Shown here piece by piece: positions 13,778 to 58,758 of a DNA stretch of 64,000 nucleotides. Every line of letters starts with the position of its first letter. Within the stretch, counting starts at the first letter, position 1. The position numbers and the translations under genes are program-made. Source of the stretch: Patescibacteria group bacterium (GTDB taxonomy: Bacteria; Patescibacteriota; Microgenomatia; UBA10105; UBA927). Location of the stretch: assembly GCA_035510735.1 (NCBI GenBank), contig DATKGN010000008.1, positions 12,466 to 76,465 on the forward strand, given 5' to 3'. The notes under the pieces were generated by a model, which was not told the DNA's origin, searched no databases, and worked only from the letters and a program-made list of their open reading frames with translations.

Positions 13778-15115
13778 TCAATACCCCAAAATATTCAGAT
13801 GTTCACCGACCCTTTTCCAAAATTGTTCCACTCCTTTTGATGAGAGTTCCGGACTGTCCACGTAACCGGTAAAACGCACCATTGAAGCAAAAATTTTATG
13901 TTCCAGGCACCAGCCGATAAATTGCGCCGAAACAACTGAATGAACCGGAAGCCGTAAAGCCCGCCACGTTTTCGCCCGCAATAACAGTGTATCGCTTGGT
14001 TTTTTCCCACGGGCCGCTTCATGCCATAATTCCTGCTGTTCCTGTTTGTCTGGGAGAAGTTGGTGGCGCATGAGGAACCGGATGTTATCCCATTCCTGAC
14101 GGCCAACCGGATCGGAGAAGAGAAGTATGGATCCGCCGCGCTCGCGGGGTTTTAAAAGCGCCTTAAACGACTGTTCTGATGGTTTTGTCACCTCAAGCGA
14201 GATGACTTCATGCTCATATAATGCTTCAAATAATTCAACAACCTCCCGATGAGATGAAGATACATGGAGCTTTACATTAGGTTTTCCGATCATATGCCCT
14301 AAAAATGTCGTCGTTGACGGAGATTGCTGCGAAATAATATGGAACATGAAGCGGTCGGTATGCCGGTCTAATTCACTAATAAGTTTCTCAAAATAGGTTA
14401 ACTGCACGGCGGCTCCGGATACAGGAATTGCCATATGAATTGTGGCTAATTTCATTGGATCAAGTTGATGGATGCGCCTCCTGTAGGCCTGTTCAGATAA
14501 TGAAACTCCCAGATTCGGACTTACCATATACGGTAAAACTATATACCGAGAGCTCGGCAGGTCTTTCTGGCTATGGTGATATATTTCTAGCGCCCGTTTC
14601 GTATACTCACTGGGAACAAAAATGAGATCAGCTCCACCGACCGCCCAAAAATGCTGAGGCGAATCATCCGTGACAACGACAATCAAAACCATGCGTATAT
14701 TATTGGTTTTGGCAAATTCATCTTTCATTGCAGCAAGCTGGTGACCTAAAATCATATGCGTCGCAACCACGAGAAGCGTTTTCGGTTTTATCACGTGCTC
14801 CTCAAGGATCGTCTGCAGCTGCTCGGTGATGAGCTTCGTCTGACTTCGGAAATATCGCCGGGCCAAAACGGTAAATACGTCTTCAGCCCACCCGTGCTGG
14901 GTAAACTCCATCACATTACGGAAAAACGGATGGATGCTGGTGAGCGCGTGAATCGAATTGACGCTTTCATCCTGGGACGAGAGGAGAAGTGCGTGCGCGC
15001 CGGGTGGGAGCCCGTGATAGAGAGCATGACTAACGCGTAGATGACCTAAACCAGTGAGTGCCTGGGCAAGCACAATGACTGTATCTGATGATGCGAGCGG
15101 AGATTCATTGGGCAT
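13778..15115 (-). CDS. hypothetical protein (possible GT-B-like / MGDG-synthase-like glycosyltransferase)
   Basis: 445 aa; N-terminal TGLGHLRVSHAL segment weakly reminiscent of GT28-type N-domain; not confirmed. Confidence 0.3.
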   Translation of the reverse strand: MPNESPLASSDTVIVLAQALTGLGHLRVSHALYHGLPPGAHALLLSSQDESVNSIHALTSIHPFFRNVMEFTQHGWAEDVFTVLARRYFRSQTKLITEQLQTILEEHVIKPKTLLVVATHMILGHQLAAMKDEFAKTNNIRMVLIVVVTDDSPQHFWAVGGADLIFVPSEYTKRALEIYHHSQKDLPSSRYIVLPYMVSPNLGVSLSEQAYRRRIHQLDPMKLATIHMAIPVSGAAVQLTYFEKLISELDRHTDRFMFHIISQQSPSTTTFLGHMIGKPNVKLHVSSSHREVVELFEALYEHEVISLEVTKPSEQSFKALLKPRERGGSILLFSDPVGRQEWDNIRFLMRHQLLPDKQEQQELWHEAARGKKPSDTLLLRAKTWRALRLPVHSVVSAQFIGWCLEHKIFASMVRFTGYVDSPELSSKGVEQFWKRVGEHLNILGY

Positions 15116-15161: not shown

Positions 15162-16073
15162 TTATGAATGCAGGATATTCCAATGGTCTCCGTCACTCAC
15201 GACCTCAATATCTCCTGCCTTATCTGTTCTCAGAACCTGGGAACCGATGTTTTGGAGGATAGTAATAATCTCTTTTGCCGGCTGACCATACGAATTATTC
15301 CCGACAGAAATGACTGCGAGCTTCGGGTGTATCCACTCAATAAAATCCTTCGTGAGGCCGGTTTTGCTTCCGTGGTGCGGCACTTTTAATACTTCTACTT
15401 CATTATCTGCTAATGGTAGGCCTGTATAACGCGGCTCCACACGGCTATCCGCATCTCCCGGATATATCACATCAAACGTCCTGTAATGTAATTCAAAAAC
15501 AACACAATAGTCGTTTAATGTCGCAATCACGCTGGCAGGCTCGTCCGTCGAAGCTGCTCCCAGTACGTTGGTAAGACCGACGCCATGGGCTTTAGCAATT
15601 TGAGCACTTGTTGGCCACAGTACCAAGAGGGAAGTGGGACCAATGGTGATTCGGTCACCCTGTGTGAGAAGCTTAACCGGAATATGTCTCTTCTGTATAG
15701 CGCCCATAAACTGTTTATATTCTTCCGAGGTGTTGGCCACATCGCTTTTAAAAACGTAGGAAACATCAAACCGGTTAAGGACCGAAACTAATCCCGCCAT
15801 GTGGTCCTTTTGCGGATGGGAAAGGACAACCATGTCGATGTGGCGGTCCCAAAACGGCATATGACGCCCGAGGCAGGTGAGCACGCGATCATCCGGGCCG
15901 CCGTCAATGAGCATATCGCGGCCGTCCGGAAGTCGCACATAGGAAGCATCGCCCTGGCCAACGTTACAAAAGACCACATGGAGCTTACCGTCAGGCTGCG
16001 TCCAGATAAACGCTAATAGGATAAGTAAGCCTGTAACAATACCGCTCATGAGATACCCGATACGTAATTTCAT
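15162..16073 (-). CDS. comEC: ComEC/Rec2 C-terminal metallo-beta-lactamase domain protein (separate ORF)
   Basis: NVGQGDA and SHPQKDH MBL motifs, VPHHGS; N-terminal TM helix. Confidence 0.75.
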   Translation of the reverse strand: MKLRIGYLMSGIVTGLLILLAFIWTQPDGKLHVVFCNVGQGDASYVRLPDGRDMLIDGGPDDRVLTCLGRHMPFWDRHIDMVVLSHPQKDHMAGLVSVLNRFDVSYVFKSDVANTSEEYKQFMGAIQKRHIPVKLLTQGDRITIGPTSLLVLWPTSAQIAKAHGVGLTNVLGAASTDEPASVIATLNDYCVVFELHYRTFDVIYPGDADSRVEPRYTGLPLADNEVEVLKVPHHGSKTGLTKDFIEWIHPKLAVISVGNNSYGQPAKEIITILQNIGSQVLRTDKAGDIEVVSDGDHWNILHS

Positions 16074-16078
16074 AATAT

Positions 16079-16162
16079 TGTCATCGCGAGACCGTTCCGA
16101 CGGCGCGGCGATCCCATCATGTTTGAGATTGCTTCTCCGTCAGCCGACGGATCGCAATGACA
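16079..16162. repeat. palindromic MITE/REP-like element (copy 1 of 3) filling the gap between the two comEC ORFs
   Basis: TGTCATCGCGAGACCGTTC...GATCGCAATGACA terminal inverted repeats; related copies at 53612-53703 and 54775-54866. Confidence 0.65.
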
Positions 16163-17119
16163 TTAGAAACTAATACTCGCAAACGGAATTTTAGCCGTCA
16201 GATCAATGATCCAAAGCACATACGTAAGTGGCAGCCACACAAACCAAGCGACGAGCTGTGCGAGCGGCATAAAGAACATGCCCATTATTATGACAGTAAA
16301 GCCAAGTGCCATAATCGGTGCCATGAGCCAGCCGATGAGAATATTTGTGAGAGGAGAGATAAGGGAAATCCTGTGAAGCTGAAACAAAATAATCGGGATG
16401 GTAAACGCCTGAGCGGCGAGTGTAACCCGGAGATCATCGGCGATAAGTAACCAAAGCCATCGTATAAGGCGTTGAGGATACGTATTTTGAGGAGCACTGA
16501 AGGTGCGCCCGATATCAACTTTAACATTTCCATCTAAGGATATTGGCGCAGCTTCACTGAGTGAAGCGGTGGTGTGGCGATTGGTAGCTAGATTAATCCG
16601 CTTCGCGCCTCCGAAAAATACTGCATCCGAAACGCCGCTAGTAGAGCCAAAAATAATAATCCCCAGCGTAGCCATAACGGAAAGCTGGAACGAAAGATCG
16701 CCGATCCATGGGGGATTTAGCAATAGCATAATAATGACTGCTAATATCCAACTCAATAACGGCCATTTTTGCCTCCCAAAAGCTACTGATAGAAGTGATA
16801 TTCCGCCCATAATACCGGCCCGTATAACGCTTGGAGAGGGTCCGACAAAGAAAATAAACCCTATAATTATAACTATGGTCAATAAGTTTGCTATAGGACG
16901 TCGAAATACCTTATAGAGTACAAGACCTACCAGTGTTACGAGAATCGAGATATTCATTCCCGACAATGCGATGATGTGAAGCGTACCGGTTTCAATAAGA
17001 GAATTCTTAAGAGACGGATCCAATGTCGCCTTGGTACCGAATATAATTCCGTTAAGAAGTCCGGCCTGCGGTTCATGCAATAGACTGTTAATAAGGCCCG
17101 TTAATGTTTCAAGTGACAT
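16163..17119 (-). CDS. comEC: ComEC competence-domain (membrane channel) protein
   Basis: Polytopic; ALSGMNISIL and GFQLSVMATLGII motifs typical of the ComEC competence domain. Confidence 0.7.
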   Translation of the reverse strand: MSLETLTGLINSLLHEPQAGLLNGIIFGTKATLDPSLKNSLIETGTLHIIALSGMNISILVTLVGLVLYKVFRRPIANLLTIVIIIGFIFFVGPSPSVIRAGIMGGISLLSVAFGRQKWPLLSWILAVIIMLLLNPPWIGDLSFQLSVMATLGIIIFGSTSGVSDAVFFGGAKRINLATNRHTTASLSEAAPISLDGNVKVDIGRTFSAPQNTYPQRLIRWLWLLIADDLRVTLAAQAFTIPIILFQLHRISLISPLTNILIGWLMAPIMALGFTVIIMGMFFMPLAQLVAWFVWLPLTYVLWIIDLTAKIPFASISF

Positions 17120-17160
17120 AGAATTGATAAGCCCGCCGGAAATTAAGCCGTCCTGGACGA

Positions 17161-17892
17161 TTACAGTGACAGGCTGTTTTTCAATTTTTCAAGTAACGAC
17201 GGGCCAATTGCCTTTTTCGCAACCAAGTCATCCAAACTGCCATACGGCCGGTTATCAATAATTTTCTGTGCAGTGATCGGACCGACGCCCGGAAGCGAAT
17301 CTAATTCATCTTTAGAGGCCATATTAACCGAAATAAGAGCGGTATTTTGCGACTGGCCATTCGAACTATTACTGAGATTGTACGACGTCTCGTTGAGACG
17401 TTCGTACGAATCTCCATTGTGCGATGTCTCATCCACCGTCGGAATATATATTTTCATCCCGTCACTAACTTTCATGGCGCGGTTTATATTTTTTGCAACA
17501 TAATCCGTGTCTGCATTTGACAACATCCCGCCGGCAGCAATAATCGCATCCTCTACCCTCGCGTCCACAGGCACCATAGTTACACCGGGATGCACGACCG
17601 CACCCTCAATATCAAGGGTAATTAGCTTCAAATTAGCAGAACCACTAGCTTGATTGCTAGTATTTTGCGAGCCTCCGTCATGCGTAAACTCAATCGGTTG
17701 ATCATTTTGAGTTGATTTCACTAAAAGCACAAGCGAGATACCGATACAGACAAGGCTAACTACGCCCAATAGTATCGGCAGTTTATAAAGTCGCCAAATT
17801 CCCGCAAAAATGTTTTCACTCTCATCTTGGGCAGGATCCATTAGCAGCATTAGAACATAATGGCGAAATAAAGTCTGTGAGCTGGAAGACAA
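17161..17892 (-). CDS. comEA: competence protein ComEA (helix-hairpin-helix DNA binding)
   Basis: C-terminal INMASKDELDSLPGVGPITAQKIIDNRPYGSLDDL HhH motif; N-terminal TM anchor. Confidence 0.75.
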   Translation of the reverse strand: MSSSSQTLFRHYVLMLLMDPAQDESENIFAGIWRLYKLPILLGVVSLVCIGISLVLLVKSTQNDQPIEFTHDGGSQNTSNQASGSANLKLITLDIEGAVVHPGVTMVPVDARVEDAIIAAGGMLSNADTDYVAKNINRAMKVSDGMKIYIPTVDETSHNGDSYERLNETSYNLSNSSNGQSQNTALISVNMASKDELDSLPGVGPITAQKIIDNRPYGSLDDLVAKKAIGPSLLEKLKNSLSL

Positions 17893-21503: not shown

Positions 21504-21521
21504 TTGACGGCCTTATTATAT

Positions 21522-30422
<8,901 letters not shown>

Positions 30423-30550: not shown

Positions 30551-31069
30551 TTAATCAGCGCACAATGTATAGTCGGAAGTGGTCAAAGCCGGGTTTGCTG
30601 ATTTACAGGAATCTGCACATTTTGCCTGAGATGCCGTGATATCGGTGTCTGATGCATTATCCAACGTTGCCCAGAGGCAAAAATCATCGCGTGCAACACC
30701 CACCGGCTGATAATGCCATACATAAGAGGCTGCCTGAGGCAAAAGTTTCATATACACATTTGTTCCTGCCGCAAACTCACCGGAATTACAGCTTGCAATT
30801 GGTGGTGTTGCATTACCGCATCCATCCAAATCGTTAGTCGTTGCATCCGGCGGGTAGATATTAAAATCGTTATAATACAGTCTGAGTGCTGTTTTGAGCT
30901 CCTGTAGTTCGGATTTCTTTTTAACGTCTTTCGCCCGCTGCCTGGCTCCCAAATAATTTGTGACCGCAAATGCTATGAGTACGGCGATAATGGCAATCAC
31001 AACAAGAAGTTCAATAAGCGTAAAGCCGCGTTCAAATCTACTGGTTATCCTATTTCGAATATTTTTCAT
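30551..31069 (-). CDS. prepilin-type (type IV pilin / pseudopilin-like) protein
   Basis: N-terminal GFTLIELLVVIAIIAVL class III signal/methylation motif followed by ELQELK...YYND helix. Confidence 0.75.
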   Translation of the reverse strand: MKNIRNRITSRFERGFTLIELLVVIAIIAVLIAFAVTNYLGARQRAKDVKKKSELQELKTALRLYYNDFNIYPPDATTNDLDGCGNATPPIASCNSGEFAAGTNVYMKLLPQAASYVWHYQPVGVARDDFCLWATLDNASDTDITASQAKCADSCKSANPALTTSDYTLCAD

Positions 31070-31092
31070 TTATTGTGGTCCCACTTGTTACT

Positions 31093-31608
31093 TTACAGGG
31101 GTGTGTTACTGCTTGCAATACCATACATACACTCTGCCCCGCCGCCGCAATTGGTGTTCGCGTAGCCCGTGATTTTGACCCCTTTATCCGTATCCATTGT
31201 ATTTTCGATGGTCGAATAGATTTTATAATAGCTCCCATCCAGAGAATCATAATAATAGGCTTCGCCTGGCTGTGGATCCGTTGGCAGCGCGAGCATATAG
31301 ATAGTCTCAGGAGATGCCAAGAGATCACTCCATTTTTTCCCCCATGTACAGTCACTGATGCTTCCGGATCCTAAAATACACCCTTTAATCTGGCCTGCAT
31401 CACCGAGCGGATATTTTCCCTTATCGTTATAATATGTTTCCAACGCCTGGGCAACCTGTCCTAAATCGCTTTTACGCCGGCTGTCTCTGGATTTTTTCAC
31501 CGACGAAATGAAGCTTCCCACACCCGCAACGATCAGCATTCCAAGAAGAGCAATGACAATTAATAACTCTATTAACGTAAATCCGTTTCGTCGTGTATGT
31601 CTTTTCAT
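31093..31608 (-). CDS. prepilin-type (type IV pilin-like) protein
   Basis: GFTLIELLIVIALLGML motif; start set at MKRHTRRNGFTLIELL preceded by GGGAGG RBS. Confidence 0.75.
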   Translation of the reverse strand: MKRHTRRNGFTLIELLIVIALLGMLIVAGVGSFISSVKKSRDSRRKSDLGQVAQALETYYNDKGKYPLGDAGQIKGCILGSGSISDCTWGKKWSDLLASPETIYMLALPTDPQPGEAYYYDSLDGSYYKIYSTIENTMDTDKGVKITGYANTNCGGGAECMYGIASSNTPL

Positions 31609-31628
31609 TGTAACAAGTCCTCCCCGTG

Positions 31629-32309
31629 CTAATGCAGGCACCGGTTCGCCGGATTTCCACATTGATTCACACCATTATATATACATCCGAAGCCGTAACG
31701 GAATGGGCAACCTGCAGCATCGGGGTCTGCATAATTATTGCAATCTCCGGCTTTCGTACACTCCCATTGACCACCGGACGGAGGTGTAGGCGTCGGAACA
31801 TTGGTGGGCGTCGGCGTCGGCGTGCCTGTGGGGGCCCCCGGAATAAAATTCGGGGCAACGACATCTGACCCCATGGCAACGCAATAATTATATCCTACTC
31901 CCCACCCGCACCCCTGTACGGGATCACACCCGATCCGGGTAATATCCGGATCGCTCAAATCCTCCAATTTTGCACAAACATGATAGCCGTCGCAAGCCGT
32001 TGGCGTTCCCGCAACATATAGATAGGGTCCGTTATTGCCGGGATCGCAGGGTACCCTCGGAATATATGGGGCAAGACCGGGTCCTCCGCAGCTCGTGAGA
32101 GGAGATGAAGCGTAATAACAGGCTTTATCATTGTAATATTCTTCAAACGCCTTCTGAATCTTCTCAAGATCGGTTTTTCTCTGCGTATCACGGCCTTTGG
32201 CGAATTGATTCCGGAGATTCATAAGAAGGATAAGGAGCAAGAGGACAAGAAGAGCTATCACGATAAGAAGTTCCATGAGGGTAAATCCGCGATCATTTCG
32301 CTTGCTCAT
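31629..32309 (-). CDS. prepilin-type (type IV pilin-like) protein with Cys-rich, TPTPTP-linker C-terminal domain
   Basis: GFTLMELLIVIALLVLL motif; C-terminal region with 12+ Cys and TGTPTPTPTNVPTPTPP linker. Confidence 0.7.
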   Translation of the reverse strand: MSKRNDRGFTLMELLIVIALLVLLLLILLMNLRNQFAKGRDTQRKTDLEKIQKAFEEYYNDKACYYASSPLTSCGGPGLAPYIPRVPCDPGNNGPYLYVAGTPTACDGYHVCAKLEDLSDPDITRIGCDPVQGCGWGVGYNYCVAMGSDVVAPNFIPGAPTGTPTPTPTNVPTPTPPSGGQWECTKAGDCNNYADPDAAGCPFRYGFGCIYNGVNQCGNPANRCLH

Positions 32310-32376
32310 CGGGGTCAGGAATCTCATATATCAGGTATAATCAGTATGGCAAGACACCAAACAAAAAGCAACCAAT

Positions 32377-49919: not shown

Positions 49920-51149
49920 TCAGATTATTTGAACCAGCACCCTGCACACAAAATCAACATCTTTTTCCGTCATGTTGAGGGCGGAAGGCAGGTTGAAGCC
50001 GTCTTTTTCGACCCGTGATGCCACAGGATTGGGAAACCTCGCGGTATACATAGGAAACCTGCTCATCCGCGGAAACCCTTCCCGTGCGTGAATATTGTAC
50101 GTGCGAAGCCGGGTAATAAGATCATTTCTCGATATTTTTTTCGTTTGCAGGAGTACCGCCGGATACGCATAATTTGACCGCATGCCTTCTTTTTCTTTCA
50201 ATAACGTAAGTTCCGGCACGTCTTTCAGCCGGTCCCAATACCAGTTGAAAATTTTCCGCTTCATTGCGACCAACTCTTCGATGCGCTCAACCTGGGCAAG
50301 CGCGAGCGCCGCTGTGACATTGGACATCTGGTATTCGAACCCCAACGTGTCGCACCAAAAGTTCGCGAGCCGGTTGGTTCTTCCCATATTACTCATGAGT
50401 ACCGCCTCATCAAGCATTTTCTTATTATTCGTTAAAAACATACCACCTTCTCCCGATGCCGCAATTTTTGCGCCATGAAATGATATACATGAGACATCAC
50501 CGAAACTCCCTACTTTCTTCCCCTTATAGAGCGATCCTATTGAGGGAGCCGCATCTTCAATGAGTTTCAACTTATATTTTTTTACAATCTTCATAATCGC
50601 ATCCATATCGCAGGGCATGCCAAACGTATGGACAATCATAATGCCTTTCGTCTTTTTGGTAATGGCGTTTTCGATCGCTTTGGGATCAATACACCACGTA
50701 TCAGGGTCTATATCGACAAATACCGGAGTCGCGCCTGTGTAGGCGATCACATGAGCCGTCGCTGCCCAGCTAAAGTCAGTCACGATCACTTCATCACCTT
50801 TAGTAAATCCGCAGACCAGGCACGCCAGATGCATGCAGTGCGTCGCACAAAATCCTGCAAGCGCGTAGGTTGTTCCGATGTAAGAAGCTGTTGCCGCTTC
50901 GAGTTTTTTAATGTGTTTATCAAACGTTTCATAAAACCCCTGTTTAACACCCTCTATGACATAGCGTACTTCTTTGTCTGTAATCGACGGGCCGGCAAAA
51001 CTAATCTTTTTTTTACTCGGACTTAATAATCGTTTTCCAAAACGAGTATTATAGTCCGAGTTACCCCTCGTAGCTTTTAGCGAAGTGGGGTTACGATTCG
51101 GTCGAGATGCCTCCATAGCCTTGCGCGAAGGAGGGTTACGCTTTTTCAT
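49920..51149 (-). CDS. DegT/DnrJ/EryC1/StrS family sugar aminotransferase (PLP-dependent), with basic N-terminal extension
   Basis: ISFAGPSITDKEVRYVIEGVKQG start block, ...SFHGAKIAASGEGGM... Lys-PLP region. Confidence 0.75.
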   Translation of the reverse strand: MKKRNPPSRKAMEASRPNRNPTSLKATRGNSDYNTRFGKRLLSPSKKKISFAGPSITDKEVRYVIEGVKQGFYETFDKHIKKLEAATASYIGTTYALAGFCATHCMHLACLVCGFTKGDEVIVTDFSWAATAHVIAYTGATPVFVDIDPDTWCIDPKAIENAITKKTKGIMIVHTFGMPCDMDAIMKIVKKYKLKLIEDAAPSIGSLYKGKKVGSFGDVSCISFHGAKIAASGEGGMFLTNNKKMLDEAVLMSNMGRTNRLANFWCDTLGFEYQMSNVTAALALAQVERIEELVAMKRKIFNWYWDRLKDVPELTLLKEKEGMRSNYAYPAVLLQTKKISRNDLITRLRTYNIHAREGFPRMSRFPMYTARFPNPVASRVEKDGFNLPSALNMTEKDVDFVCRVLVQII

Positions 51150-51810
51150 ATATTCCTTTCCATTTCATAAATACATCATACCGTTGTATTGACCTTTTAT
51201 ACCCCATCGGCGCCGTAATCCATTCTCCCCCATCTCGTGTTGTTCGATGGATAAGTCGTATGCGCTTTGTCTCAACAAATCCTAATTTATTATATAAACG
51301 CAATGCCCGCTCATTATCCGATGTCGTCTGGAGCGTGTATCCGTTGAGCCCAAACGTACTCATTCCCCACTGCATCATCTGCCGGATTGCCGCCGTCACA
51401 AGCCCCGGATACCCCTTGCGCCCACGGACAATATTGTCAATCTCACATGTTTTCTTTTCAAAATCAAACCGGTATAACCCAACATGACCTATATATGTAT
51501 CATGAACACGTATCATAAACAAGAGCCGGTCCTGTGTATTTATAACGTTATTTTTTAACCACCCCTTTGTCCGTTTGCGGGTCACCGGAAATTGCGTTGG
51601 AAACCACGTTTCATGTTTTTTCCTCCAGCGCGAAAGAAGGGCAACGATGTGATCATCAGTGATTGAATCGCGGGTAAGGAGTATAAGATCATAGTTCGTC
51701 CGGCGGATTATTCCCCGAATCGATACGGAGCCAAACGATTTGTTTTTCAATCGTGCGATGATTGCGCGTATCTTTTGTCCTGGTGGCGAAGAATATAAAG
51801 CGTCCTTCAT
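51136..51810 (-). CDS. GNAT family N-acetyltransferase
   Basis: IGHVGLY ... RGRKGYPGLVTAAIRQMMQW ... YNKLGFVE acetyl-CoA binding pattern. Confidence 0.6.
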   Translation of the reverse strand: MKDALYSSPPGQKIRAIIARLKNKSFGSVSIRGIIRRTNYDLILLTRDSITDDHIVALLSRWRKKHETWFPTQFPVTRKRTKGWLKNNVINTQDRLLFMIRVHDTYIGHVGLYRFDFEKKTCEIDNIVRGRKGYPGLVTAAIRQMMQWGMSTFGLNGYTLQTTSDNERALRLYNKLGFVETKRIRLIHRTTRDGGEWITAPMGYKRSIQRYDVFMKWKGIYEKA

Positions 51811-53594
51811 TCTTTCATCGCGGTCATTTTTTCAAATTCTTTGCGATCCAAAAACGGAAAAAGGTCTTCGTACGGTTTTGAAACAAGTCTGCCGTCGGGC
51901 ATTTTATCCGATGCAACACGCGGAATGATGAGTTGCCATTCAGGGGAAAGGACATCACAGACGACCGGCCCCTTGTACGAAAGGACTTCTTTGATTTTAC
52001 GATCCAATTCGCCCACATTCTTAATGCGCACTGCTTTTATCCCATATGCTTTGGCAATCTTCATGCTGTCAGGACACCAAAGCCCGCTTTTGGGACTCTC
52101 CCCCAATAATCGTCCTTCCATATGCACGCGCTGTGTATGGCGGATCAACAAATACCCGTTATTGTTGATAACGAATAATTTTATCGGTAATTTGTTATGT
52201 TTCATCGTTGCAAGCTCCTGCAAATTCATCTGCAGACAGCCGTCACCCGTCACGATAATCGTGTTCCCTTTCGGACGGGCCATGCATGCGCCGATGCCTG
52301 CCGGCCAATATCCCATCGTCGATATCCCACCGGTTGTCAAAAACCGCTGTCCTTTTTTAATTTTCCACGCCTGACATACAACATGAAACGGCGAACTCGT
52401 ATCCACGACGACCGTATCTTTTGATGACGCAAAGCGGGATAACCGATCACTTAAGTAATACGAATTCACCGTTTTTTCTTTTTTATATTCGGGGAGGGAC
52501 ATCGGATAACGTTTATTCCACAGATTACACCGGGCAATCCACGAGGCGTAGGAATGCAATTTTGTATGTGGTAACGACGCAAGGAGAAGTTCGAAAAATT
52601 GTTTTGCATCACCGTAAATTTTAACTGTAGGCTCAAGACCGGGTTTTTCAAGTTCTTTCGTATCGATATCAACGACGACTTTCATCGCCCGTCTGCCCCA
52701 ATCTTTCGCATCATAACCGACAATTCCCGGATCAAGCCGTGCGCCAACCGCGATAATGAGATCAGCAAGCTGTACGGCAAAATTCGCGGGCCGGTCACCA
52801 TACAGTCCGGGACGTCCCACAAATTGTCTGTTGTCTGATTCGATAAGATCAATACCTAACCGCGTCGTGATGACGGGCATATGCGTTTTACGTAAAAATG
52901 TTTGAGCAAGCTCTCTTGCGCCCGCAATATGCACGCCGTGTCCCAAAAGAAGAAGCGGACGTTTAGCATTGGTGAGAAGCGTCATTACACGCGCAACATC
53001 TTCTTTTTGTATAACCGGTAATACACGTTCGAATTCCGACGGATCAAAATGAAACGACATTTTTTCGGGCACCGTCATCCGTTGCGTATCAAGCGGCACT
53101 TCTATCCATACCGGCCCCGGCCGTCCATGGGTCGCCAGATAATAGGCTTTTTCCATGTGATACTGAATTTTTGCCGGGTCATCTATTGAAATAAAATATT
53201 TCGTCACCGTTTGTACAATGGGTTTGAGGTAAATACCCTGAAGTCCATATTGACGGATACCGGTTTTTTCCATGTAGGAGACGTTACCGGTTCCTGATTG
53301 CCCGGAAATCACCATCATGGGGGCAGAATCAACATATGCGCCGACAACCCCTGTTAACGCATTGATACCTGCCGGTCCGGCTGTCACCATGGCAACGCCG
53401 ATTGATTTCCCGATACGACCATACGCTTCAGCCGCCATGGCAGCTGCCTGTTCGTGATGATGAAAGATTGGGTGAATGCGTTTGTTTTTATATACCGCGT
53501 CGTTGAGGAACATCGCCTGACCGCCGGTTATCATAAATACCGTATCAACACCTTTTTGAGCGATAAAATCAACGATGTATTCTGCAATATTCAT
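51807..53594 (-). CDS. thiamine-pyrophosphate-dependent enzyme, acetolactate-synthase/YerE/Xsc family
   Basis: N-terminal TPP-enzyme pyrimidine-binding domain (ITGGQAMFLNDAV...HEQAAAMAAEAYGR), central domain, C-terminal TPP-binding GDGxx...NN motif region (VTGDGCLQMNLQELATM...VINNNGY). Confidence 0.75.
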   Translation of the reverse strand: MNIAEYIVDFIAQKGVDTVFMITGGQAMFLNDAVYKNKRIHPIFHHHEQAAAMAAEAYGRIGKSIGVAMVTAGPAGINALTGVVGAYVDSAPMMVISGQSGTGNVSYMEKTGIRQYGLQGIYLKPIVQTVTKYFISIDDPAKIQYHMEKAYYLATHGRPGPVWIEVPLDTQRMTVPEKMSFHFDPSEFERVLPVIQKEDVARVMTLLTNAKRPLLLLGHGVHIAGARELAQTFLRKTHMPVITTRLGIDLIESDNRQFVGRPGLYGDRPANFAVQLADLIIAVGARLDPGIVGYDAKDWGRRAMKVVVDIDTKELEKPGLEPTVKIYGDAKQFFELLLASLPHTKLHSYASWIARCNLWNKRYPMSLPEYKKEKTVNSYYLSDRLSRFASSKDTVVVDTSSPFHVVCQAWKIKKGQRFLTTGGISTMGYWPAGIGACMARPKGNTIIVTGDGCLQMNLQELATMKHNKLPIKLFVINNNGYLLIRHTQRVHMEGRLLGESPKSGLWCPDSMKIAKAYGIKAVRIKNVGELDRKIKEVLSYKGPVVCDVLSPEWQLIIPRVASDKMPDGRLVSKPYEDLFPFLDRKEFEKMTAMKE

Positions 53595-53611
53595 GTATGA
53601 ATTACACACCT

Positions 53612-53703
53612 TGTCATTGCGAGTCGAGTCTCACGAGACGCGGCAATCTCAATATAAATTATAGTGAGATCGCTTCGCCATAAGAACGGTCTCGCGATGA
53701 CAG
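53612..53703. repeat. palindromic MITE/REP-like element (copy 2 of 3)
   Basis: TGTCATTGCGAG...GGCAATC...GCTTCG...CTCGCGATGACAG. Confidence 0.65.
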
Positions 53704-53715
53704 TGCATATACCAT

Positions 53716-54762
53716 TTATGTTAACGATTCTAATTGAAAGTCTTCCGGTTTGCCTTCTTTTTTCTGTTTTAAATACAACGCAACTTCAACAATGATATCT
53801 TCCTGACCCGCTACCACTTTTCTTCCCCCCAGCTCTACGAGTATATCACGAACGTCAACTCCGAAGCGCTCTGCTGCGCGTTTCGCGAGCGGTGCAAAAC
53901 CGGAAAATACACCCGAAAGACCGCTTGTGAGTGTCACGGAATTAATTTCCGGAGTCGTATTATTGGTTTTTTCGCGGATTAGCTCAGCATTATCCATAAG
54001 CTGATAAAGATCCAATCCCGTCTGCCTACCGGTTTTTTGAAGAACTGCCACGATAACTTCAAGCGGACAGTTGCCTGCACCCGCGCCCAAACCACGGCTC
54101 GTACCATCGATGATAGTCGCCCCCGCTTCAACAGCACGAAGAGCGTTGCCGATCGCAAGCCCGAGATTATTGTGTGAATGGAAACCGACGGCAACAGACA
54201 GACCGCCCACGAGTGCACTGACTTTTTCCGTCACCTCCGACGGCACGTAAGCGCCGGCCGAATCCATAAGGATGATGCCTTGTGCTCCGTATCCTTCCAT
54301 CAGCTTCGCCTGTTCTAATAGCTCGTTCGCACCTATCATGTGAGACATCATGAGAACCCCATACGTCGCGAGGTCATGCGAGATCCCGTAGCCAATATGC
54401 TGCCTTGTAACATTTGCCTCAGTACAGTGACACGCGACAATGAGGGCTTCTATTCCCGCGTCAATTGCCGGAGCAATATCATTTTTGATCGTTCCGAACC
54501 CCGGAATCAAAAAACCTGCAAGCTTCGTATGCTTTAATTCTTTTTTGGCAATTGTAAGCATCTGGACATCAGAAAGCCGCGATTCACCTAAATGCAGCGA
54601 TGAAGCGCCCAACCCGTTACCATGCCCGACGACCAGAAGTTTCATTCCGGCGGCTTCTGCCCCTCTTGCGTATGCGTGAACCGTCTCTTCATTAAATTGA
54701 TGATGCATCGCATGGGATCCGTCACGAAGAGTTGAATCAATAATGGTTATTTGCGTATTCAT
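53716..54762 (-). CDS. 4-hydroxy-2-oxovalerate aldolase-like (DmpG/MhpE/BphI family)
   Basis: IIDSTLRDGSHAMHH, HGNGLG, CTEANVTRQHI, LMMSHMI, GFHSHNNLGLAIGNALRAVEAGA, GLGAGAGNCPLEV — near-colinear with DmpG. Confidence 0.8.
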   Translation of the reverse strand: MNTQITIIDSTLRDGSHAMHHQFNEETVHAYARGAEAAGMKLLVVGHGNGLGASSLHLGESRLSDVQMLTIAKKELKHTKLAGFLIPGFGTIKNDIAPAIDAGIEALIVACHCTEANVTRQHIGYGISHDLATYGVLMMSHMIGANELLEQAKLMEGYGAQGIILMDSAGAYVPSEVTEKVSALVGGLSVAVGFHSHNNLGLAIGNALRAVEAGATIIDGTSRGLGAGAGNCPLEVIVAVLQKTGRQTGLDLYQLMDNAELIREKTNNTTPEINSVTLTSGLSGVFSGFAPLAKRAAERFGVDVRDILVELGGRKVVAGQEDIIVEVALYLKQKKEGKPEDFQLESLT

Positions 54763-54774
54763 AGCTGGTATTCA

Positions 54775-54866
54775 TGTCATTGCGAGACCGTTCTTACGGC
54801 GTGGCAATCCATCTTATTATAGAGATTGCTTCGTCTTCGCCAATTGGCGTATCCTCGCAATGACAA
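54775..54866. repeat. palindromic MITE/REP-like element (copy 3 of 3)
   Basis: TGTCATTGCGAGACCGTTCTTACGGCG ... CTCGCAATGACAA; 5' arm is the reverse complement of the 3' arm of copy 2. Confidence 0.65.
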
Positions 54867-54875
54867 CTGATACGC

Positions 54876-55763
54876 TCACTCTTTCCTCTTTACTCTCTGC
54901 TTTGCATATTCTTCCGCAACCGCGATAGCCGCACAGTTTATAATATCCAAATTCCCGGCATATACCGGCAAAAAATCGCCGAGTCCCACGACTTCCGTCA
55001 TTATCATAACGCAGTCAGAGGTGTTCACCGGTTCGACGATAACGCGAAAGCCCGGAACGTATTTTTGAAGCCTTTTAGCTGTATCACGGATTTCTTTCAC
55101 AATAGCATCCATTTTAGGCTTGCCAATCTTTGCGTATATTGTATTATGCATAAGAATTGGAGGGTCAGCAGGATTGAGAATGATGATCGTTTTGGCTCTC
55201 GGAACTCCGGCAATAGCCATAATTGCTTCGCTTGTTGTTTGTGTATACTCATCAATATTATCACGGGTCCCGATGCCTGCCGATTTGGACGAAATACTCG
55301 AGACGACCTCAATATAGGGAGTTTCGGGGTGTACGGACATGATGGCCGCAATAAGCGGAATATTCGCCTGGCCCCCGCACGAGATCATATTGACGTTGTG
55401 AGACCTGATGCTCTTTTTTAAATTAATAAGCGGCACGCACAATACTCCGATTTTTGAAGGCGTCATGTCGATGGTAAATTTATTTAGTCTCCGAAGGATC
55501 GGCGCATGAATCCGATGACTTACTGCATTTGTCGCGTCAAAGACTATATCACAAATATGAGGATTACTGACAATTGCATTGATGGAATCTGATGAGGTGG
55601 CCACCCCCATCCGCTTGGCATTCGCTATCCCGGGCGATGCAGCATTTTGTCCAGTAAAAAGTGTGCACATAAGATAAGGAGAGCGTTCTACTTTCATTAG
55701 TAAATCGCTTCCGATATTTCCCGTCCCGATAATCGCAACATGAAGTTTTTTTTGCTTTTTCAT
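54876..55763 (-). CDS. acetaldehyde dehydrogenase (acetylating), DmpF/MhpF family
   Basis: VAIIGTGNIGSDLLMKV, VNMISCGGQANIPLIAAI, SSISSKSAGIGTRDNIDEYTQTTSEAI, IILNPADPPILM — colinear with DmpF. Confidence 0.8.
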   Translation of the reverse strand: MKKQKKLHVAIIGTGNIGSDLLMKVERSPYLMCTLFTGQNAASPGIANAKRMGVATSSDSINAIVSNPHICDIVFDATNAVSHRIHAPILRRLNKFTIDMTPSKIGVLCVPLINLKKSIRSHNVNMISCGGQANIPLIAAIMSVHPETPYIEVVSSISSKSAGIGTRDNIDEYTQTTSEAIMAIAGVPRAKTIIILNPADPPILMHNTIYAKIGKPKMDAIVKEIRDTAKRLQKYVPGFRVIVEPVNTSDCVMIMTEVVGLGDFLPVYAGNLDIINCAAIAVAEEYAKQRVKRKE

Positions 55764-55794
55764 ACGGCGTATGGAGTTGTATTATATGGTCCTT

Positions 55795-56760
55795 TTACCT
55801 TATTTTCTTTATGTTCACGGTTGTTCTCACAATATAGCGCGGCCGCCGTTTAACTTCCAAAAATATTTTCGCCAAATATTCAGCAATAACACTCAACGAT
55901 AATAGCTGCACACCCCCTAAAAATAAAATGAGTATAACAACGGTGGGTATCCCCCTGGGGGAATTATGAAACAGGATAATAGTAACAAGATCAAAAACCA
56001 TAAGAAGAAAAGTAAAAATCATAACAAAAAATGCGATAGTTGATATCCACTCCAGTGGTTTGAACGAAAAATTAACAAGTATTGTTTTTGCCCACCAGAA
56101 TCCCGAAAGGACGCTTTCATTTGTTTGACCGTGAGAACGCGCGTCGCGCACATACGGAACACCGATTTGTTTGAACCCTACGTATGCACGAAGACATCTG
56201 AGATAATAATCATATTCATCAATCGCCAATAATTCATCTACGACCCGCCGATCAAGAAGCGAAAAATCACCGGCATCAAGTGGAATACTAATATATGCCA
56301 ATTTGTTGAGGACATAATAAAACCCTTTATACAGCATGTTCCATATGATTCCGTAGCCTTTACGGGAAGTCCGTACGCCATACACCACCGAATACCCCTG
56401 TTTCCACCGCTCAACAAATTTTGATAAGAGTTCCGGGGGATCCTGAATATCTCCATGAAGAAGAAACGCCATATCACCCGTTGAATATTCCAGTCCCGCA
56501 AGGAAGCTTGGCTGCGGCGAGCCAAAATTGCGGCTCATAACAATGAGCTTGACGCGTCGATCCTTCTTTGTGAGACGAAGGTAAATTTTTTCTGATCTGT
56601 CCGTTGACGCATTGTCTACATAGATCAATTCAAAGTCGTAGCGTGGAATTTTTTTAAAAACGGCAACAATCCTGCGATACATCTCTTCAATATTTTCTTC
56701 CTCGTTATAACACGTAACGATGATGGATATACGTTTCTTTTTCATGATCCTTAATGTCAT
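55795..56760 (-). CDS. family 2 glycosyltransferase (polyprenol-phosphate glycosyltransferase, ArnC/GtrB-like) with C-terminal TM helices
   Basis: ISIIVTCYNEEENI ... YVDNASTD ... two C-terminal TM helices. Confidence 0.7.
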   Translation of the reverse strand: MTLRIMKKKRISIIVTCYNEEENIEEMYRRIVAVFKKIPRYDFELIYVDNASTDRSEKIYLRLTKKDRRVKLIVMSRNFGSPQPSFLAGLEYSTGDMAFLLHGDIQDPPELLSKFVERWKQGYSVVYGVRTSRKGYGIIWNMLYKGFYYVLNKLAYISIPLDAGDFSLLDRRVVDELLAIDEYDYYLRCLRAYVGFKQIGVPYVRDARSHGQTNESVLSGFWWAKTILVNFSFKPLEWISTIAFFVMIFTFLLMVFDLVTIILFHNSPRGIPTVVILILFLGGVQLLSLSVIAEYLAKIFLEVKRRPRYIVRTTVNIKKIR

Positions 56761-56781
56761 CCTCGGGCTTGACCCGAGGAT
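56759..56781. promoter_or_regulatory. perfect 10-bp-stem hairpin between rfbG-like gene and GT2
   Basis: ATCCTCGGGC ttga GCCCGAGGAT. Confidence 0.4.
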
Positions 56782-57771
56782 CTATTCTTTATGTTTTATG
56801 GATTCCCGATTAGGTCGGAATGACAAAAACATACTGCTTTTTTTATACCATTTATATGTCTCCTTTAATCCTTTTTCGAGTGAATACGCTGGTTTCCATC
56901 CAAGCCCAGCGATTTTACTCCAGTTCAAATGCTGATATGGTATCTCATTTTTCTGATTATTATCAATCTGGTGCGGAACGGATATACGAAGTATCTTCTG
57001 CGCCCTCTTTATAAGATCAAGGACAGAAATATTTGTATCACTCGCAACATTAAACACCTCTCCCTTAATCTCATCTACATGATCTTCTAAAAATACATAT
57101 GCCGAAACGACATCGCCGACATATACATAATCCCTCATAAATGTGCCGTCGCTTCTCAGATGAAGTGTTTCGTGAGTTAGCGCGGCATTCATAATCCCGG
57201 GTATAATTCGCGACATATTAAGATCCCCGCCACCATAAATATTACCAAACCGAACGGTAACGACGGGCGCTCCATACGTTTTCACATAGGCTTTCGTCAC
57301 CATGTCTCCGGCGGCTTTACTTGCTTCATAGGGATGATCCCCCAGTAAGGGACTATCTTCCGTATACGTTTCGCTGCTTTTCCCGTATGCTTTATCGGAT
57401 GAAGTAATGATAATCCTGCGTACGGTGCCGCTATTCAACGCTGCATCGAGTATATGCGTTGTCCCTAAGACATTAGTCGTAATTGTCTCCACAGGATTGT
57501 AGTAAGCCGTATCAACAATCGGTTGAGCAGCGAGGTGAAAGATATCTTCTATTTCGTATTTGGTAACAATATCGGCTATTCTTCTTCGATCTGTAACGTC
57601 TCCATTCGCGAGAATTACTTTTTTTTCTAGTCCCCGGGTAACAAAATACGACTGCGGGTCAAGACTCCTGTACGGCACAACGACACGCGCTCCCCTTTTG
57701 ACGAGTTCTTCAACTAAATGACTTCCGACAAACCCCGTCCCGCCGGTGACTAAAATTCTACGTCCGTTCAT
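56782..57771 (-). CDS. rfbG: CDP-glucose 4,6-dehydratase (RfbG/DdhB-like extended SDR)
   Basis: ILVTGGTGFVGSHL, FHLAAQPIV (AAQP), TSSDKAYG, HPYEASKAAGDM, FGNIYGGGD — matches CDP-glucose 4,6-dehydratase rather than dTDP-type. Confidence 0.7.
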   Translation of the reverse strand: MNGRRILVTGGTGFVGSHLVEELVKRGARVVVPYRSLDPQSYFVTRGLEKKVILANGDVTDRRRIADIVTKYEIEDIFHLAAQPIVDTAYYNPVETITTNVLGTTHILDAALNSGTVRRIIITSSDKAYGKSSETYTEDSPLLGDHPYEASKAAGDMVTKAYVKTYGAPVVTVRFGNIYGGGDLNMSRIIPGIMNAALTHETLHLRSDGTFMRDYVYVGDVVSAYVFLEDHVDEIKGEVFNVASDTNISVLDLIKRAQKILRISVPHQIDNNQKNEIPYQHLNWSKIAGLGWKPAYSLEKGLKETYKWYKKSSMFLSFRPNRESIKHKE

Positions 57772-57975
57772 AATAGAGTCTCCCGATTGGTATATAAACA
57801 TGCACAACCCTTCTGTTTTCGTGTGGGATAAAAGAGTTTCCGATTATTAAATGAGCACGTGCAAACCCGAGCCAATTGCCTCGAATTATCAACCAAAGGG
57901 ATACATTTGAGGAGAAAATATACCACAAAGAAAACTCCGGCAAGTGCGAATTAAATAATCGGGAAACTCCCCGTG

Positions 57976-58758
57976 TTAGTCCTTCCATACTTTCCACTGT
58001 GGGCCGGTTTTCCAAAAGGTGTTGAGATTCGTAACGTCTGCATATGTATCCATCGCATGCCAAAATCCATTATGGACGTAAAGCGATAACTCATGATTTT
58101 TCACTAAGCGGTGTAATGCGGCATGATCAAATTCTCCGGGTCGAATGTAGTCAAAAAATTTCTTTTTGAAAATCATATACCCGCCGTTCACCCATTCCCG
58201 GAGGGACGGCTTCTCCACAAACTGTGTAACTCCGTTCTTTTCGTCAATGCGGACCTGTCCGAACCGGGACCGCGGGTGAACTCCGGTGATAGTTCCAACT
58301 AAGTTATGTTTACGGTGAAAAGCCACAAGTTTTTTAATATCAACATCTCCCAAACCATCACCATACGTCACCATAAAATCCTCATCTTCTTTCGGAATAT
58401 AATCGCGGACGCGGAGTATCCGTTCTCCCGTTAATGTTTCCTGACCCGTATCAACGAATGTAATGGTAAAATCATCTATCCCCTCTCCAGCTGACGCGCG
58501 GTGTATATGTGTCCTGCCGCTTTTCGTGTGAAGCGTAAAGTCGTGGAGGAAATATTTTTGATTCAGAAAATAATCCTTGATGTAATCTCCTTTATACCCA
58601 AGCGCGATAATAAATTCGTTAAAACCGAAGTGACTGTATATTTTCATGATATGCCAGAGAATCGGTTTATTGCCGATGAGGACCATGGGCTTTGGTTTAA
58701 ATTCCGTTTCTTCTTTTAACCGGTATCCGATTCCACCGCAGAGTATCACTGTTTTCAT
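57976..58758 (-). CDS. rfbF: glucose-1-phosphate cytidylyltransferase (RfbF/DdhA)
   Basis: MKTVILCGGIGYRLKEETEFKPKPMVLIGNKPILWHIMKIYSHFGFNEFIIALGYKG nearly colinear with RfbF N-terminus. Confidence 0.85.
   Translation of the reverse strand: MKTVILCGGIGYRLKEETEFKPKPMVLIGNKPILWHIMKIYSHFGFNEFIIALGYKGDYIKDYFLNQKYFLHDFTLHTKSGRTHIHRASAGEGIDDFTITFVDTGQETLTGERILRVRDYIPKEDEDFMVTYGDGLGDVDIKKLVAFHRKHNLVGTITGVHPRSRFGQVRIDEKNGVTQFVEKPSLREWVNGGYMIFKKKFFDYIRPGEFDHAALHRLVKNHELSLYVHNGFWHAMDTYADVTNLNTFWKTGPQWKVWKD

Follow-up and report, generated by a model that had tools for sequence, protein, structure and literature searches.

Inverted doublets of CGTC/TGTC-tagged, probably Ssn-related repeat units in operon spacers of a Patescibacteria genome, with a likely nuclease partner

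Introduction

What are the palindromes of about 90 bp that occupy the very short spacers between operon genes in a Patescibacteria genome, and to which enzyme, if any, do they belong? The question was raised by a 64,000-nt stretch of DNA from a Patescibacteria group bacterium (Microgenomatia; assembly GCA_035510735.1, contig DATKGN010000008.1, positions 12,466 to 76,465 of the forward strand), hereafter referred to as the window. Named homologs of its proteins include those of Gottesmanbacteria and other lineages of the Microgenomates group. [quoted passage not shown] We find that the elements are real, REP-like, and more than chance would produce, and that the likeness to Correia-type MITEs was mistaken. 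With a probability of about 0.7, we propose that they are inverted doublets of CGTC/TGTC-tagged units of the REP class that are related to the repeats of Ssn nucleases, and that their likely partner is a nuclease of the Ssn family.

Results

Each element is an inverted pair of hairpin units

The three elements each consist of two hairpin units of about 37 to 44 nt in inverted orientation, with the tags facing outward and the tails inward (Table 1). A unit comprises, in order, an unpaired YGTC tag, ATYGC, GAG, a variable distal hairpin, CGNN, GCRAT, and a short tail beginning with C. When the window units are folded as DNA, ATYGC and GCRAT form a basal stem of 5 bp, which is followed by an internal loop and a distal hairpin of 4 to 6 bp, while the 4-nt tag (TGTC in all six units) and the 3-nt tail (CCC, CTC, or CCA) stay unpaired. 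The two distal hairpins of c3 are unrelated, since its left and right arms are not complementary to one another in these parts.

All three copies are where they were first located, with exact ends for c1; c2 and c3 each end one base earlier, at 53702 and 54865. The shared termini described for them, TGTCAT(T/C)GCGAG...CTCGC(A/G)ATGACA, recur with zero or one mismatch per terminus, and the inner motifs GGC(A/G)ATC and GAT(T/C)GC (including GGCAATC and GATTGCYYCG) are present. Over 27 positions, the 3' arm of c2 agrees at 25 with the reverse complement of the 5' arm of c3. Exact or near-exact termini number six and form three inverted pairs 84 to 91 nt apart. Taken alone, a loose search of the window with the 12-mer terminus (two mismatches allowed) is not significant, yielding 10 matches against 4.9 expected; the extra matches, at 13975 and 27106-27185, lack any repeat structure and are chance. 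A shorter hairpin noted at 56759-56781 is also real, but it is part of a different and simpler repeat unit, which belongs to a fourth doublet of classical type.

Table 1. Repeat elements of the window, their units, and their genomic setting (spacing is read along the minus strand)
Feature	Position	Strand or reading	Length	Structure	Neighbors and spacing
Doublet c1	16079-16162		84 nt		Between Competence-domain ORF (16163-17119, minus) and MBL ORF (15162-16073, minus); stop +0 nt, ATG 5 nt further on
c1 left unit	16079-16115	+		TGTC-ATCGC...GCGAT-CCC, C-G type	
c1 right unit	16125-16162	-		TGTC-ATTGC...GCAAT-CTC, T-A type	
Doublet c2	53612-53702		91 nt		Between DmpG-like aldolase gene (53716-54762, minus) and TPP-enzyme gene (ATG 53594, minus); 12 nt from stop, 17 nt to ATG
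c2 left unit	53612-53650	+		T-A type	
c2 right unit	53666-53702	-		C-G type, distal stem CCGT/ATGG	
Doublet c3	54775-54865		91 nt		Between DmpF-like dehydrogenase gene (54876-55763, minus) and DmpG-like gene; 9 nt from stop, 12 nt to ATG
c3 left unit	54775-54811	+		Distal stem CCGT/ACGG	
c3 right unit	54822-54865	-		Distal stem CGCC/GGCG	
Classical-type doublet	56755-56825				Overlaps 3' end of epimerase ORF (56782-57801, minus)
Classical unit 1	56755-56784	+		TGTC-ATCCTCGGG-CTTGA-CCCGAGGAT-CTA	
Classical unit 2	56799-56825	-		TGTC-ATTCCGACCTAATCGGGAAT-CCA; degenerate inverted partner	
Context of c1	15162-17892	minus			comEA (17161-17892), Competence-domain ORF, separate MBL ORF
Context of c2, c3, and classical doublet	51807-57807	minus			Single nucleotide-sugar-type operon: epimerase, GT2, DmpF-like, DmpG-like, TPP enzyme
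ORF, open reading frame; TPP, thiamine pyrophosphate.

The same architecture holds well beyond the window. Among 142 copies, 134 carry the YGTC tag; GTCAT is preceded by C in 93 copies and by T in 41, ATGAC is followed by G in 99 and by A in 40, and the flanks thus read Y...R. Between the head and GCAATC, arms are of two types: a short arm, CGNAGCGAA, which includes GCGNAGC, and a long arm of the form GA-(variable hairpin)-GA-CGNN. GCGNAGC is a very stable DNA mini-hairpin with a GNA triloop. Arm-length combinations of 15/9 and 9/15 are as frequent as 9/9. We counted 144 dimers and 27 unpaired heads, a dimer count that is biased upward because the loci were chosen by a dimer pattern. Some doublets (e.g., L136, L143, L179, L187, L190, L192, L199, L208, and L213, among metagenome loci L130 to L240) have an extra module of about 33 nt (GGAGCCTGTCCCGARC...GAGATTGC) beside the right-hand GATTGC, which duplicates the GAGATTGC junction.

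Pairing is conserved within each arm

The pattern of substitutions indicates which bases are kept paired. Position 6 of the head covaries with position 3 of GCRATC in the same arm: the two form T-A in 200 arms and C-G in 63, with 4 exceptions (Fisher's exact test, P = 1e-57). Across 42 distinct combinations of head and tail, 99.5% of cells are paired, and none of 500 shuffles matched the observed covariation score. Meanwhile, 57 of 119 dereplicated doublets (loci L130 to L240 plus the window), including c1 and c2, join a C-G arm to a T-A arm. Such mixed doublets have C.A and G.T oppositions between arms, even as each arm is perfectly paired. Of the remaining classes, T-type/T-type doublets number 60, while C-type/C-type doublets are absent. 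It follows from the same-arm covariation that each arm folds on itself; taken together with the mismatches between arms, this led us to reject selection for a cloverleaf or for a single long hairpin in favor of two separate hairpins.

Within the 42 combinations, G2, T3, and C4 of the tag and the first two pairs of the basal stem (A-T and T-A) do not vary, and C20 is conserved to at least 90%. The distal stems, by comparison, are conserved in structure and not in sequence: a perfect stem of at least 4 bp occurs in 42% of 279 distinct long arms versus 15% in shuffles, and these perfect stems use 72 different sequences. As DNA, the complete elements fold far better than their shuffles (z = -2.1 to -6.6).

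The same arms flank genes for a small GIY-YIG nuclease

When we clustered all ORFs around the repeats, one small family emerged, a GIY-YIG protein of 93 to 98 aa (PF01541, E value of about 1e-14; our family assignment is by Pfam PF01541 only, cd10448 being the published class of SsnA). In eight metagenome composites, the gene (about 96 codons) fills the loop of a doublet, in the order unit, GIY-YIG ORF, inverted unit, with the upstream unit in sense orientation. The start codon lies 15 to 45 nt past GCAATC, and the stop codon abuts GATTGC. Five of the eight composites (L166, L174, L191, L204, and L220) carry the window's own arm on at least one side, and these heads flank 5 of 8 GIY-YIG segments compared with 4 of 1,701 other open segments (Fisher's exact test, P = 6e-11). 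The other three GIY-YIG segments are flanked by classical units of the type TGTC-ATTCCCGC.

The association held when sites were chosen by protein similarity alone. At four further sites picked in this way, one of them in a Nitrospirota metagenome-assembled genome (80% amino acid identity), a sense unit stands just upstream of the ATG in all four, and a downstream inverted unit or complete doublet is present at three. Units with CGTC, TGTC, or CCTC tags that belong to the respective host likewise flank the homologs in Azospirillum lipoferum, Neisseria gonorrhoeae, Aeromonas caviae, Novosphingobium aromaticivorans, Sinorhizobium meliloti, Planktothrix agardhii, and Spirosoma oryzicola (in Photobacterium, on one side only), as well as in the loci L164, L194, and L393 to L396. 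On plasmid AZO_p3 of A. lipoferum 4B (L397, 255018-256290), the ssn homolog lies between sufB and sufC with a complete doublet on each side.

The Patescibacteria protein shares 41% identity over 87 aa with the SsnA ortholog of N. gonorrhoeae and has retained Tyr, Tyr, Arg, His, Glu, and Asn as catalytic residues. An AlphaFold2 model of the protein had a predicted local distance difference test score of 93.9, and the nearest solved folds were UPF0213 BH0048 and Slx1. The family is large, with 10,643 representatives of 50%-identity clusters at an E value of ≤1e-3. Its subfamilies follow the type of unit, such that proteins with the motif "..IKAGSRKKK.." (e.g., P0241) accompany complex units and those with "..KKWNR.." accompany classical units. 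GIY-YIG genes of a more distant family occur in a tRNA-gene array of another contig (L216, 2254-2559 and 6897-7127), where their ends are without CGTC-type units.

What is known of SsnA bears directly on the window units. The 94-aa SsnA of Neisseria meningitidis (cd10448) binds its unit, CGTCATTCCCGCGMAVGCGGGAATCYRG, as single-stranded DNA (ssDNA) only, and not the reverse strand, double-stranded DNA, or RNA (PMC11893778). Its cut falls a few nucleotides upstream of the bound unit. Cleavage depends on the three bases that precede the palindrome (GTC), and binding on the C that follows it (PMC11893778). The Ssn enzymes of Neisseria and Wolbachia alike recognize their units solely in ssDNA and cleave a few bases to the 5' side. 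GTC and the trailing C are the positions conserved in the window units, that is, exactly SsnA's determinants of cleavage and binding. In the same study, Ssn-related motifs (SRMs) were found in 71% of homolog regions and on both sides in 42%, and the unit-ssnA-unit layout was likened to an insertion sequence (IS). Because the same arms flank ssn homologs in related contigs, and because these homologs resemble SsnA, the window elements are probably gene-less doublets of the Ssn-type repeat, in a divergent variant.

A different enzyme could nevertheless be responsible. The elements might be REPIN-like doublets moved by a RAYT or IS200/IS605-type HUH tyrosine transposase, or by another host enzyme, with ssn genes homing into the loop. 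The doublet architecture, the lack of a target-site duplication, and the hairpin with its 5' tetranucleotide are all REP/RAYT-like, and the ssn genes of Azospirillum and Neisseria sit between complete doublets and not inside one, as would fit insertion next to pre-existing repeats; each ssn allele was also found at a single site. Yet the tag is YGTC and not GT[AG]G, and a 2013 survey of CGTC-tagged repeats reports no tyrosine transposase flanked by them (PMC3733652). No HUH-Y1-type gene recurred in about 2.5 Mb of flanking loci, as judged from ORF clustering and not from a Y1 profile search. The experimental specificity of Ssn for such units (PMC11893778) and the way its subfamilies track unit type also speak against a HUH or other host enzyme, and we regard this explanation as unlikely.

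The doublets are dispersed and were inserted at two of the three junctions

We scanned contigs from one genome per species for the pattern GTCATTGCGAG-N45-75-CTCGCAATGAC. At least 120 stretches matched, from many phyla that include Pseudomonadota, Bacteroidota, Chloroflexota, Patescibacteria, Planctomycetota, and Cyanobacteria. Among the matches listed, hosts included Bradyrhizobium, sphingomonads, Mucilaginibacter, Pedobacter, Flavobacterium, Microcoleus, and delta- and gammaproteobacteria, and the sequence of the head, GTCATTGCGAG, is shared by lineages as far apart as Patescibacteria and Pseudomonadota. In metagenomes, 111 stretches contained a 26-nt arm specific to the window, joined to a wide variety of partner arms and loops. 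Flanks were non-orthologous in almost all genome-locus pairs compared, meaning that the copies are dispersed and not locally duplicated DNA. These genome and metagenome matches bear out the initial description of dispersed REP-like palindromes in very short operon spacers. Matching viral contigs (IMG/VR, L241 to L360) were considered as evidence of carriage by phages, but most of them are alphaproteobacterial clusters resembling gene transfer agents (head-tail connector, major tail, and related genes) and so do not show such carriage. A literature search with the element's sequence string returned only unrelated primers.

Comparison with syntenic relatives (L127 to L129, with 71 to 73% DmpG identity) provided sites without the element at the c2 and c3 junctions, while the c1 junction gave no clean empty site. 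The stop codon of dmpG and the start codon of the TPP-enzyme gene overlap in a 4-nt ATGA in the relatives, compared with a spacer of 121 nt in the window; the spacer between dmpF and dmpG measures 4 to 39 nt in the relatives and 113 nt in the window. At both junctions the encoded protein ends are the same as in the relatives. In a contig from a sister strain (L159), c2 has two 1-nt indels, both in loops. An attempt to compare empty and filled sites between Bradyrhizobium and Tardiphaga, at 75 to 78% identity, involved sequences too diverged to define boundaries.

At c1, we considered whether the element had split comEC. This was ruled out: the best 120 homologs of the MBL ORF are all stand-alone proteins of about 300 aa, and gene order around c1 is conserved in L405. 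Judging from these homologs, a split ComEC is usual in the lineage, and c1 was not its cause. In a relative (L406, 229-384), the comEC/MBL spacer contains a different GC-rich inverted repeat (CCCGTCCGACG...CGACGGG) enclosing TGTCATACGCAAG, which may be another repeat family.

Dispersed elements of about 90 bp, with perfect or near-perfect 12-bp inverted repeats at ends that start TG...CA, are what would be expected of classical MITEs, i.e., internally deleted copies of an IS with a DDE transposase, moved in trans via their terminal inverted repeats. The junction of dmpG and the TPP-enzyme gene even has an 8-nt imperfect direct repeat, ACATRAAT. Specifically, the flanks of c2 (53590-53720, minus) read ACATAAAT...(118-nt insert)...ACATGAAT, and a single ACATGAAY stands in their place in relatives; the repeat keeps both stop and start codons. 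The family as a whole, however, has no target-site duplication: across 142 copies, the longest flank repeat averaged 3.31 nt compared with a null of 3.18 ± 0.07. Clustering of all ORFs in about 2.5 Mb of DNA around the repeats revealed no recurring transposase, and the sole gene seen between such ends encodes the 96-aa GIY-YIG nuclease. Moreover, the termini are conserved across phyla and pair with the internal GCRATC, a signature of hairpin units and not of terminal inverted repeats; the apparent inverted repeats are the outer halves of two such units. We therefore reject the likeness to Correia-type elements and consider a classical MITE origin very improbable.

Operon position and RNA folding

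All three elements lie in minus-strand operons, 0 to 17 nt from stop or start codons. This placement would fit a role mainly in RNA, through which the elements would persist and in which REP/BIME-like stem-loops in polycistronic mRNA would protect upstream segments against 3' exonucleases, attenuate read-through, or uncouple translation. The folding test proposed earlier gave RNA structures of -37 to -42 kcal/mol, far more stable than shuffles in all three copies (z = -4.0 to -7.8). Family-wide, the elements lie mostly between co-directional (52) or convergent (21) genes and rarely between divergent ones (7), and the insertion of c2 broke the ancestral ATGA overlap of stop and start codons.

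Several observations are hard to reconcile with such a role. Each arm's own hairpin is kept while mismatches between arms are tolerated, yet in any transcript one arm is antisense. The order of long and short arms relative to transcription has no clear bias (23/12/14). No Rfam family matched: the window had no match at the gathering threshold, and a search of 53400-57000 at E values up to 10 gave chance-level matches only. The class-specific enzyme does not bind RNA (PMC11893778), and a position downstream of genes is also what purifying selection on any insertion would produce. An effect on RNA as the primary function is weakened by these points, and we think it rather unlikely; a secondary effect on operon mRNAs is possible.

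Other features of the window

The classical doublet shapes the end of its neighboring gene. Homology of the epimerase ORF to L127 ends at residue 322 of 339; the last 17 residues (SMFLSFRPNRESIKHKE) are read from the doublet, and the TAG stop codon lies in the tail of classical unit 1. Downstream, the called ATG of the GT2 gene falls in the ATGACA tag, and homology suggests an internal Met 15 nt further. Both genes are part of a nucleotide-sugar cluster (49920-58758, minus) with an NTP-transferase, the epimerase, GT2, an acetyltransferase, and aminotransferases together with the DmpF/DmpG-like genes and the TPP enzyme. Such surroundings are unusual for genes of the dmpFG type; the relatives L127 to L129 have them as well.

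Genes for DNA uptake (15162-17892 and 30551-32327, minus) comprise comEA, the Competence-domain ORF, the separate MBL ORF, and three prepilin-type ORFs with GFTLIELLVVIA N termini. The set is worth noting because Ssn limits transformation in Neisseria, where SsnA restricts the integration of transforming DNA (PMC11893778). Elsewhere in the window (21504-30422, plus), an ORF of 2,972 aa is rich in collagen triple-helix repeats (PF01391, 9e-68), and a stretch at its N terminus resembles Phage_int_SAM_1.

Discussion

A working model

We suggest that each unit folds on its own strand as ssDNA and that its partner is a single-domain GIY-YIG nuclease of about 95 aa from the Ssn family. The lineage's Ssn would cut units of the form TGTCATTGCGAG...GCAATC, for example TGTCATTGCGAGACCGTTCTTACGGCGTGGCAATCCA as ssDNA. 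Paired cuts outside both tags on opposite strands, or the repair of such cuts, may then spread doublets, some of which would have been inserted into the near-zero operon spacers of a compact Patescibacteria genome. Gene-less doublets would most likely be non-autonomous derivatives, or satellites, of a unit-ssn-unit element. The system may also have a cellular role, such as acting on incoming ssDNA.

Taken further, the model leads to a more ambitious and, in our judgment, doubtful proposal. Units of the form YGTCATYGCGAG...GCRATC could constitute a separate specificity class of Ssn repeats that moves horizontally across phyla, in which the unit-ssn-unit composite is autonomous and doublets of about 85 nt are still-mobile, MITE-like derivatives. 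If so, it would represent the first case of an IS/MITE-type system with a 96-aa GIY-YIG ssDNA nuclease as its driver, and in Patescibacteria, where comEA/comEC and type IV pilins are retained, it could also act on incoming ssDNA as SsnA does in Neisseria.

A number of findings weigh against assigning the elements to the Ssn-related repeats or against parts of the model. No ssn or other GIY-YIG gene is present in the 64-kb window, and each exact Ssn protein maps to one genomic site, giving no sign of very recent transposition. The pattern for SRMs, HGTCWYN(0-2)YYVSBRHN(0-5)WNVSBRGN(0-2)RNCYNB, matches none of the six flagged units, nor does it match the Bradyrhizobium-type unit; in the window its sole match is the classical unit at 56755-56785 (0.23 expected). 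The covariation concerns a single varying position among the five pairs of the basal stem and may trace to few events. As DNA, single units are only weakly more stable than shuffles (z = +0.3 to -3.1). On the tag strand, distal-stem mismatches are A.C in 8 cases and G.T in 1, at odds with the prediction for folding of that strand, although the numbers are small. Finally, the comEC/MBL junction of relatives holds 133 to 156 nt of unrelated spacer, so that insertion is demonstrated for c2 and c3 only. The absence of C-type/C-type doublets, the 8-nt repeat at c2, and the excess of A.C mismatches are all unexplained.

Implications

Our analysis links the CGTC-tagged REPs surveyed in 2013, which were reported to lack a dedicated enzyme, to the Ssn motifs described in 2025 by Chenal et al., whose paper mentions neither the 2013 work nor Patescibacteria or Bradyrhizobium (PMC11893778). 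What is new is modest: a subfamily with complex stems that escapes the SRM pattern, that occurs in many phyla including Patescibacteria, and that includes the ssn gene in an IS-like layout. Because this large subfamily is missed by the SRM pattern, published counts of SRMs and of pairs of Ssn and repeat are underestimates, notably in Bradyrhizobium, sphingomonads, Sphingobacteriia, and candidate phyla.

There are practical consequences as well. The repeats split assemblies: in the window's own population, contigs are interrupted within c3, where metagenome contigs L121 and L125 start, and within the doublet at 56755-56825. The repeats also yield spurious ORFs (with peptides such as CHCERSEAI and LAMT) and can rewrite the ends of genes, as they have done with the C terminus of the window's epimerase. 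Programmable cutting of ssDNA would gain a new specificity from an Ssn subfamily matched to this distinct unit architecture.

Comparison with known repeat systems

Correia/NEMIS, ERIC, and other MITEs share with the flagged elements a size of about 90 to 150 bp, terminal inverted repeats, an intergenic site within operons, and possible effects on mRNA. Those MITEs, however, show target duplications (TA for Correia) and either originate from or rely on DDE transposases, neither of which holds here.

REPIN-RAYT systems (Bertels & Rainey 2011; Nunvar 2010; Ton-Hoang 2012) come closer. In them, too, two inverted hairpins make up a larger palindrome, a tetranucleotide stands 5' at the hairpin's foot, recognition takes place on ssDNA, a nuclease gene lies amid its own repeats, and no target duplication occurs. 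The tag is GT[AG]G in those systems and YGTC in the flagged units. Furthermore, their partner is a single-copy HUH-Y1 transposase, whereas here it is a GIY-YIG nuclease whose ssn genes are multicopy and diverged.

CGTC-tagged REPs resemble the flagged units in most respects. As described by Di Nocera et al. in the 2013 survey, they have a CGTC or TGTC tag, stems starting A-T, T-A, and CCA-like tails, form mostly inverted dimers that are often heterodimers, and include dRS3 of Neisseria and RPE-4 and RPE-6 of Rickettsia; the survey states explicitly that they have no dedicated transposase (PMC3733652). Going by the same account, the flagged units agree with them in the unpaired tag, the A-T and T-A first pairs, the 3-nt tail, the inverted dimers, the co-directional or convergent sites, the occasional intragenic copies, and the lack of a nearby transposase. 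A difference that tells against the assignment is the stem, which is described there as a contiguous 8 to 9 bp with a loop of 4 to 5 nt and is interrupted in the flagged units; within the window, a contiguous stem of this kind is found only in the unit at 56755-56784, a textbook member. The flagged family also occurs in phyla beyond the five listed by Di Nocera et al. (2013).

The closest match is the NTS/SRM-SsnA system of Chenal et al. (2025). It has the same oriented hairpin with (C/T)GTC 5' of the palindrome and C on its 3' side, the same inverted units around a gene for a single-domain GIY-YIG protein of about 95 aa, and hundreds of intergenic copies. The flagged units differ in their length of 37 to 44 nt, 5-bp basal stem, internal loop, and variable distal hairpin. 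Whereas classical stems differ between genera, the flagged head GTCATTGCGAG is conserved across phyla.

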